Origin: Hespellia sp.
Lineage (GTDB): Bacteria > Bacillota > Clostridia > Lachnospirales > Lachnospiraceae
DNA length: 24,000 nucleotides
Reading direction: 5' to 3'
Assembly: GCA_028693555.1 (NCBI GenBank)
Contig: JAQUVD010000026.1
Span: forward strand, 24,846-48,845
Position numbers and translations under genes: made by a program. Below, piece after piece: positions 21,626 to 21,810 of this stretch. The notes below the pieces were generated by a model, which saw only the letters and a program-made list of their open reading frames with translations, was not told the DNA's origin and made no database searches. The first letter of the stretch is position 1; each line of letters begins with the position of its first letter.

Positions 21626-21646
21626 AGGACAAAACTCCTTTTTCTT

Positions 21647-21743
21647 TGGCGGAAGCATGTGGGAATCGAACCCACCCGGGATATGAGAATACCCCGCATC
21701 GGTGTTGAAGACCGTGAAGACCACCAGTGTCTTAGCTGCTCCC
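21647..21743 (-). tRNA. selC: tRNA-Sec (anticodon UCA)
   Basis: Minus-strand read: GGGAGCAG-CT-AAGACACTGGTGGTCTT-CACGGT[CTTCAAC]ACCGATG-CGGGGTAT[TCTC]ATATCCCG-G-GTGGG[TTCGATT]CCCAC-ATGCTTCC-G-CCA.

Anticodon loop is C-U-UCA-A-C. There is an 8-bp long variable arm, a canonical T-arm, discriminator G and encoded CCA. Length is about 97 nt.

Acceptor stem has 7 pairs plus one G-A mismatch by my hand fold. Confidence 0.85.
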
Positions 21744-21810
21744 ATACGTTTTGTTAGGCTAAGTATAAAATAAACGGATGCATAAAGGAAATGACAGAAT
21801 TGCACGTAGG

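Follow-up and report, generated by a model that had tools for sequence, protein, structure and literature searches.

The window, by which we mean the whole stretch of 24,000 nucleotides that was analysed, carries a D-proline reductase (prd) operon of Hespellia sp. with a tRNA-Sec gene, selC, directly upstream. On the minus strand the genes follow in the order lysR, selC, prdC, prdA, a small CBO2463-domain ORF and a Sec-encoding prdB (Table 1). The products of prdA, prdB and prdC all score over the cut-offs of their family models (TIGR04480, TIGR04483 and TIGR04481, respectively), which marks the cluster as a prd operon, and the in-frame TGA of prdB (17722-17724) lies in the Sec motif AG-U-GTCH. 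Judging from its position and size, the small ORF is probably prdH, which encodes a maturation factor (PMC11229817).

The plus strand encodes a glycyl-radical activase and trans-4-hydroxy-L-proline dehydratase, followed by proC, selA, selB and a T-box-controlled ABC transporter; selA and selB thus lie 7 kb from selC and on the opposite strand. Beyond the right end of the window, at a distance of 2 kb, a prdF-like proline racemase gene (G000:C17:50845-51843; 488 bits, below the cut-off of 556) completes a route from Hyp via L-Pro and D-Pro to 5-aminovalerate. A search of the genome for three selenoprotein families found neither FdhA nor GrdA and returned prdB as the sole match to the selenoprotein-B family; among the common clostridial selenoproteins, selC thus seems to serve PrdB alone.

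Table 1. Genes and sequence elements of the prd-selC region and of the selA-selB pair, ordered by position in the window
Feature	Position	Strand	Evidence or remark
selA	11012-12409	plus	TIGR00474, 586 bits; enzyme converting Ser-tRNA-Sec
selB	12411-14381	plus	TIGR00475, 359 bits; Sec-specific elongation factor
prdB, selenoprotein, consumer of the tRNA	17449-18177	minus	TIGR04483, 385 bits with TGA read as U
Small CBO2463/CBO2479-domain protein, between prdA and prdB	18179-18427	minus	NF041553, 100 bits
prdA, D-proline reductase proprotein	18434-20215	minus	TIGR04480, 916 bits
prdC, Cys form without in-frame TGA	20231-21625	minus	TIGR04481, 619 bits (cut-off 490)
selC-prdC spacer	21626-21646	minus	21 nt, containing only the RBS AAGGAG (21635-21640)
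selC, tRNA-Sec (UCA)	21647-21743	minus	ARAGORN and Rfam RF01852
lysR-selC spacer block, candidate prd promoter/operator	21750-21804	minus	Alignment to L070; function inferred
lysR-family regulator, co-directional	21811-22713	minus	Stop codon 67 nt ahead of selC
lysR-leader hairpin	22742-22770	minus	Perfect 13 bp followed by UUUUU, directly before the lysR RBS
lysR promoter	22790-22819	minus	TTGCCA-18-TATAAT, strong

The tRNA-Sec gene

An earlier note on this DNA had read a tRNA-Sec of roughly 97 nt with anticodon UCA, an 8-bp variable arm, discriminator G and an encoded CCA from the letters alone, and both tRNA finders bear it out. ARAGORN calls selC as the sole tRNA of the 24-kb window, with a length of 97 nt, anticodon tca, discriminator G and encoded CCA, and the Rfam model matches 21651-21743 with 65.6 bits (gathering score 47, E = 1.5e-11). 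In the ARAGORN drawing the variable arm has 8 bp and a 4-nt loop, the T stem 5 bp, and a D arm is present. The acceptor stem consists of seven standard pairs with G-A at the eighth position, and the anticodon stem is drawn with 4 bp and two mismatched positions above. The long variable arm and the G73 discriminator, which are identity elements for SerRS, are both present.

The note had feared that tRNA finders might reject the Sec model on account of the acceptor-stem G-A, which was not the case. When 17 tRNA-Sec genes of related prd or sel loci (the window copy and 16 relatives) are aligned, every sequence has G-A at this position; it is thus a conserved feature of tRNA-Sec in this lineage rather than a defect, and may form a non-canonical pair. 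Acceptor and T stems of a bacterial tRNA-Sec together make up a 13-bp domain (8 + 5), in which this G-A occupies the eighth acceptor position. Compensatory double changes affect 15 of the 30 predicted pairs of the same alignment. In most relatives the D, anticodon and variable stems read differently from those of the window copy, with compensatory changes in all three; the window copy retains its pairing in the D, variable, T and acceptor stems, and has four Watson-Crick pairs and an A-A mismatch at the fifth position in the anticodon stem.

A less benign reading of these irregularities would be that selC is a decaying or non-functional copy and that the UGA of prdB is not decoded in this organism. 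The acceptor G-A and the A-A mismatch, which leaves the anticodon stem with only four Watson-Crick pairs, would fit such decay; yet the G-A is invariant among the relatives, the differences in the D and variable stems are compensatory, and the Rfam score stands well over the cut-off. Strains represented in four metagenomes, moreover, show no SNP within the tRNA while its flanks vary. Rfam on the whole genome returned one tRNA-Sec over the cut-off, and ARAGORN on all 84 contigs likewise found no second, so that this gene is the only source of the tRNA in a 99%-complete assembly, which retains selA and selB within the window, selD on another contig and the TGA-containing prdB. On uniqueness and covariation together we reject a pseudogene, and we give decay next to no credence: as far as can be judged from these features, selC is a functional tRNA-Sec gene, single in its genome.

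A different situation is seen in one relative (G009), which has two tRNA-Sec matches of equal score (C4:3437-3530 and C37:899498-899591) that are explicable by a second locus or by duplication of a contig end, as well as a weaker tRNA-Sec-like match (48.5 bits) on the opposite strand at C4:2801-2891.

The selC-prdC junction

Exactly 21 nt, AAGAAAAAGGAGTTTTGTCCT, separate the CCA end of selC (21647) from the prdC ATG (21625), with the AAGGAG located 9 nt ahead of the start codon. This start, proposed in the earlier note, agrees with the TIGR04481 profile, which begins at residue 3 of the 464-aa PrdC, and with four PrdC homologues, the N-termini of which align with the methionine at 21625 and have no counterpart to the 63 extra residues of a 527-aa ORF (20231-21814) that passes through selC in the mechanical ORF list. 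The longer frame is therefore a longest-ORF artefact. The note's statement that a spurious ORF hides the tRNA holds for that track; public protein collections contain the 464-aa form and lack the 527-aa form, and the hiding is thus no feature of public annotation. Longest-ORF tracks nevertheless bury such tRNAs under false N-terminal extensions, which is a point of practical relevance for annotation.

At its other end PrdC has an extension of ~30-40 residues (20231-20330, residues ~435-464), which is common to L059, L060, L190 and the Terrisporobacter plasmids and missing from most Lachnospiraceae PrdC proteins. Sec-type PrdC, with one in-frame TGA, is encoded in the relatives G048:C6, G049:C59, G071:C6 and G377:C13.

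The junction is not an artefact of assembly, which is ruled out by independent metagenome contigs crossing from selC to prdC. The window assembly derives from a landfill metagenome, and a contig of that source sample spans 21350-21900 without differences. Two gut metagenomes yield contigs with 5-6 SNPs that extend from prdC across the spacer into the tRNA (21350-21675) and overlap others reaching from the tRNA into lysR (21649-21900); their breaks sit in the T-arm, a segment common to other tRNA-Sec genes of those communities. An aquatic metagenome contains 21616-21900 in one piece. Across the strains of the four metagenomes, SNPs occur in prdC, in lysR and in the lysR-selC spacer, and none in the 21-nt spacer. 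Strain-level sequence of 21350-21900 is present in landfill, animal-gut and aquatic metagenomes (50-100% of sampled words), so the organism is not confined to the sample from which the assembly came. The sequencing runs listed with this stretch are all DNA metagenomes, with no RNA run among them.

A consensus scan found no promoter-like or terminator-like site between selC and prdC, as the earlier note had maintained, and scored none within the tRNA either; of the internal hexamers, CATGCT comes closest to a -10 element, with three of six matches. The two genes thus lie on the same strand with neither type of signal in between, which is the arrangement of a mixed tRNA-mRNA unit. Since the 21-nt gap holds an RBS and no terminator, we strongly infer that selC and prdC are co-transcribed.

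The lysR-selC spacer and its candidate promoter

The lysR product finds its best NCBIfam match in the selenium-metabolism-associated LysR model (147 bits, under the cut-off of 250), and homologues with 51-66% identity adjoin prdC in L070, L072, L085 and L167. Between lysR and selC, the block at 21750-21804 contains a half-palindrome, TGTCA-N9-TGCA, and a -10 element, TATACT (21762-21767), that agrees with the consensus in five of six positions, with a -35 that reaches three of six at most. The predicted transcription start site near 21755 would give the tRNA a 5' leader of ~12 nt. A sigma-54-like site, as used with PrdR in C. difficile, had no match of at least 8 of 11 positions in 21560-22900; the weak -10 and the lack of a sigma-54 element had both been remarked upon before.

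The strongest evidence that selC would be transcribed from a prd promoter comes from L070, a Lachnospiraceae MAG with a Cys-type PrdB and no tRNA between lysR and prdC. The 67-nt lysR-selC spacer and its lysR-prdC spacer reach a local alignment score of 52, where 2000 shuffles give 15.0 +/- 2.5 (maximum 28). The shared block reads ATTCTGTCA-TTC-TTTATG-CAT-TTT-ATTTTATA; L070 has the palindrome TGTCA-N9-TGACA in perfect form and the window a degenerate version of it (TGTCA-N9-TGCA), the L070 -10 TATAAT corresponds to TATACT, and the similarity extends to the bases directly ahead of the L070 RBS. In L070 the promoter is thus followed by a leader of ~25 nt, the RBS and prdC; in the window 18 nt lie between the homologous block and tRNA-Sec, and a further 21 nt, which include the RBS, lead on to prdC. 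On this homology selC would lie inside what is the 5' leader of prdC in L070. Among the prd loci compared, L070 alone matches the block: alignments with L167 and L190, the two loci that share the tight junction, and with the lysR-linked L071, L072, L085, L154 and L171 were no better than shuffles.

A weak -35 next to a regulator gene suggests activation by the LysR protein, and the block is a candidate prd promoter, probably LysR-dependent, with the degenerate half-palindrome as putative operator. Promoters activated by LysR-type proteins have an inverted-repeat LTTR box upstream of, or overlapping, a weak -35 and adjoin the regulator gene. The strong lysR promoter is a possible second source of transcripts reaching selC. 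Read-through from upstream may be limited by the terminator-like hairpin in the lysR leader, which starts ~13 nt past the predicted transcription start site; this hairpin could be an attenuator or a bidirectional terminator. The suggestion in the earlier note that the prd transcript begins with selC, or that selC is read through from lysR, thus gains support from the L070 homology in addition to the 21-nt gap.

Recurrence of the selC-prdC linkage

Among 401 sampled genomes of the same family, 46 encode a true PrdC, at 48 loci, and selC lies directly upstream of prdC on the same strand at 35 of these. There are further cases in at least Faecalicatena orotica, Dorea acetigenes and several Lachnospiraceae MAGs among the genome-collection matches listed, and on the Terrisporobacter plasmid NZ_CP154623.1, where selC is located at 8342-8439. 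Recurrence in related genomes, which the earlier note had proposed to look for, is thus evident, and its description of the arrangement as uncommon needs to be divided: adjacency is the rule in the Sec-type clusters of the family, while fusion at 21-23 nt is indeed rare. In a PrdC tree of 79 rows, every selC-adjacent locus falls within one clade of 51 rows (SH-aLRT 99).

The prdC genes without an adjoining selC belong to three groups, namely clusters with a Cys-type PrdB that has TGC for TGA (L067, L070, L071, L074 and L079), loci of other taxa such as Tissierella, Enterococcus and Synergistales, and a few Sec-type loci near the clade of the window (L059, L161 and L163). The Cys-type clusters of the first group form a separate clade and have no match to the small CBO2463-domain ORF; in several Cys-type clusters a LysR homologue, 38-55% identical to that of the window, adjoins prdC.

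The relatives' selC-prdC spacers measure 87-421 nt and are organised differently. Most long-spacer relatives have a consensus-like selC promoter (TTGAAA-N17-TGnTAnnnT), a conserved palindrome in the spacer and, 30-45 nt ahead of the prdC ATG, a T-run hairpin. These shared elements, a GTTAAAAAAATGGCG box, the palindrome TTTATAGA(T/A)AAAnnTTATAAAT and the hairpin AATAAGTAAACGG..CGTTTTTTACTTAT, were located in L064:5825-5988 and also occur in L144, L145, L176, L179, L182 and L184. They are candidates for an operator and an attenuator of the prd operon and are missing from the tight-junction clade, the spacers of which are too short to hold promoter, palindrome and hairpin. Rfam searches of the selC-prdC spacers of 15 loci gave the tRNA as the only known RNA family.

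A strong terminator directly after selC in L062, L160, L156 and L162 means that selC and prdC can be separate units in those genomes, which raises the question of whether the same might apply to the window, with one promoter for selC and another, located within the 3' portion of that gene, for prdC, so that two independent RNAs would be made. The precedent lies in the dedicated selC promoters and the terminators of the long-spacer relatives. The window, however, has no terminator after selC and nothing promoter-like in or after the tRNA beyond the CATGCT hexamer, and the 3' half of the tRNA, where the promoter would have to reside, is nearly invariant across the 17 relatives for reasons of tRNA function. 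Separate units are accordingly very improbable here, and a shared selC-prdC transcript remains the preferred reading.

The tight-junction clade and the history of the module

Three loci only, among all those examined, have a selC-prdC junction of 21-23 nt. Besides the window these are L167 (genome G280, from another genus; 21 nt), with a co-directional lysR upstream the product of which is 66% identical, and L190 (23 nt), a metagenome contig found by its junction pattern, with a divergent proline racemase gene upstream; the PrdC of either is 68% identical to that of the window. The three form one clade in the 79-row tree (SH-aLRT 97) and share a distinct variant of the tRNA-Sec D-arm, which points to a single derived event as the origin of the fusion. 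By this comparison the fusion was retained while PrdC diverged by about a third.

The wider neighbourhood may be mobile. The prd-selC-lysR module is absent from three congeners (G001-G003), two of which lack any tRNA-Sec. Within 6741-22713, hypD with its activase, selA-selB and prd-selC-lysR have no DNA match in the three, whereas proC, the T-box Trp ABC operon and the rnr flank match them at 75-79% identity; in G003 the synteny from rnr to proC is kept, without hypD or selAB. The Stickland and selenium genes thus look like accessory modules interleaved with core genes. Their absence from congeners, together with the existence of a plasmid-borne version, fits the transfer of Sec-type prd modules as units.

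It is therefore important to consider that the linkage might merely reflect co-transfer, in which the Sec-type prd cluster is a self-sufficient mobile module and the tight junction a neutral deletion of spacer, without a selected function beyond keeping the genes together. We rate this alternative a little short of an even chance. Apart from the distribution among the congeners, with the flanking synteny preserved in G003, it can draw on Terrisporobacter plasmids of ~21 kb that carry selD, selA, selB, lysR, selC and prdC/A/B together (L143; PMC10564238), on the nesting of Synergistales PrdC within the Lachnospiraceae clade, and on the argument of Zhang et al. (2006, PMC1794560) that the Sec trait can be transferred only where the sel genes are clustered and a selenoprotein gene accompanies them. 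Co-transfer explains adjacency and not transcription, however: a 21-nt gap implies co-transcription whatever its origin, and a junction kept at 21-23 nt through 32% divergence of PrdC speaks against a neutral event of recent date. For the most part the two readings can stand together, since transfer of the module accounts for the genes being neighbours and does not compete with co-transcription in the fused clade.

A proposed tRNA leader of the prd operon

Overall, the explanation that we favour, and hold to be quite probable, places selC in the leader of the prd operon, where a LysR-dependent promoter would give rise to one precursor RNA that is processed to tRNA and mRNA. Transcription would start from the weak-(-35) promoter with the -10 TATACT in the lysR-selC spacer, possibly augmented by read-through from the lysR promoter, and the precursor would comprise a leader of ~12 nt, tRNA-Sec, the 21-nt spacer and prdC-prdA-prdH-prdB. 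RNase P would then cut at the 5' end of the tRNA (21743). Bacterial RNase P favours U at position -1, and the base at -1 of selC is U, as it is ahead of the tRNA-Sec of all relatives.

At the 3' side, tRNAs with an encoded CCA are matured in B. subtilis by an endonucleolytic cut in the trailer and exonucleolytic trimming. Because selC encodes its CCA, the same order of events would be expected here, as in Firmicutes generally: a cut within the 21-nt trailer, followed by trimming to the CCA, would release tRNA-Sec. The leftover prdC-prdA-prdH-prdB mRNA would have its 5' end at most 21 nt from the ATG, at or just before the RBS. In consequence, tRNA-Sec would be made whenever the mRNA for PrdB, the only selenoprotein of a common family detected in the genome, is made.

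A more ambitious version extends this arrangement to one Lachnospiraceae prd clade as a whole, in which tRNA-Sec would be an obligatory leader, supplied at one tRNA per prd transcript under control of LysR, and its excision would create a short-leadered mRNA. We regard this generalisation as possible, though rather unlikely. If true, it would represent a supply-with-demand design for a recoding tRNA, undescribed for a selenoprotein operon, and excision of the tRNA would perhaps also control the stability or the translation of the prdC mRNA.

Sec insertion hinges on the balance between tRNA-Sec, SelB and selenoprotein mRNA, and its control in bacteria is known for few organisms. In the window the tRNA is physically built into the operon of what is probably its only client. 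The selC-prdC linkage as such is a clade-wide trait of gut Lachnospiraceae and Terrisporobacter plasmids, and one sub-clade has gone on to fuse both genes, which offers a simple case in nature for asking whether the supply of the tRNA is regulated together with the demand for it. In metagenomes, a selC upstream of prdC can serve as a marker that tells Sec-type from Cys-type proline reductase clusters.

Comparison with known systems

Adjacency of selC and prdC was already visible on published plasmid maps, and tRNA-Sec genes abutting selA or lying inside selB have been described. What is new is the family-wide linkage of selC and prdC, along with a sub-clade in which tRNA-Sec appears to form the leader of a selenoenzyme operon, and an apparent promoter homology with a tRNA-less Cys-type locus.

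The closest published counterpart is the Terrisporobacter plasmid pTPELB1 (NZ_CP154623.1). Like the window, it has selC on the same strand directly upstream of prdC, prdA, a small ORF and prdB(Sec), with a LysR regulator, selA and selB in the cluster, and its PrdC is 59% identical and shares the C-terminal extension. In contrast to the window, the entire cluster is plasmid-borne and includes prdD/E and selD; 177 nt separate selC from prdC, and the LysR gene, a member of the 'selenium-metabolism-associated' type, follows selB. The map of these plasmids shows selC, and the parts of the source available to us say nothing on its transcription (PMC10564238).

The long-spacer Lachnospiraceae, including Faecalicatena orotica (L061), Dorea acetigenes (L064) and G009, have the same gene order of selC, prdC, prdA, small ORF and prdB(TGA) and belong to the same PrdC clade. 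In contrast to the window, they have 87-421 nt and a conserved palindrome and hairpin before the prdC RBS, transcribe selC from what looks like a promoter of its own, in some cases with a terminator after selC, and carry a divergent prdF upstream instead of lysR.

Near-spacerless fusions of tRNA-Sec to other genes are also on record. In one selCAB operon the tRNA stops 2 nt short of the selA start (PMC8124441), and nesting of selC in selB has been described as well (PMC8124441; reviewed in PMC13188914). As in the window, tRNA-Sec in these cases has hardly any spacer to a gene of the selenium system, which implies a shared precursor and coupled expression. The partner gene there, selA or selB, belongs to the Sec machinery, while the window has tRNA-Sec joined to the operon of its consumer, a selenoenzyme.

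The general principle of tRNAs upstream of an mRNA is exemplified by thrU-tyrU-glyT-thrT-tufB of E. coli, in which a single promoter serves all genes and the tRNAs are freed by RNase P and 3' processing. The tufB operon combines general elongator tRNAs with the mRNA for EF-Tu, whereas the window combines one specialised tRNA with the very operon that needs it, apparently under a pathway-specific regulator.
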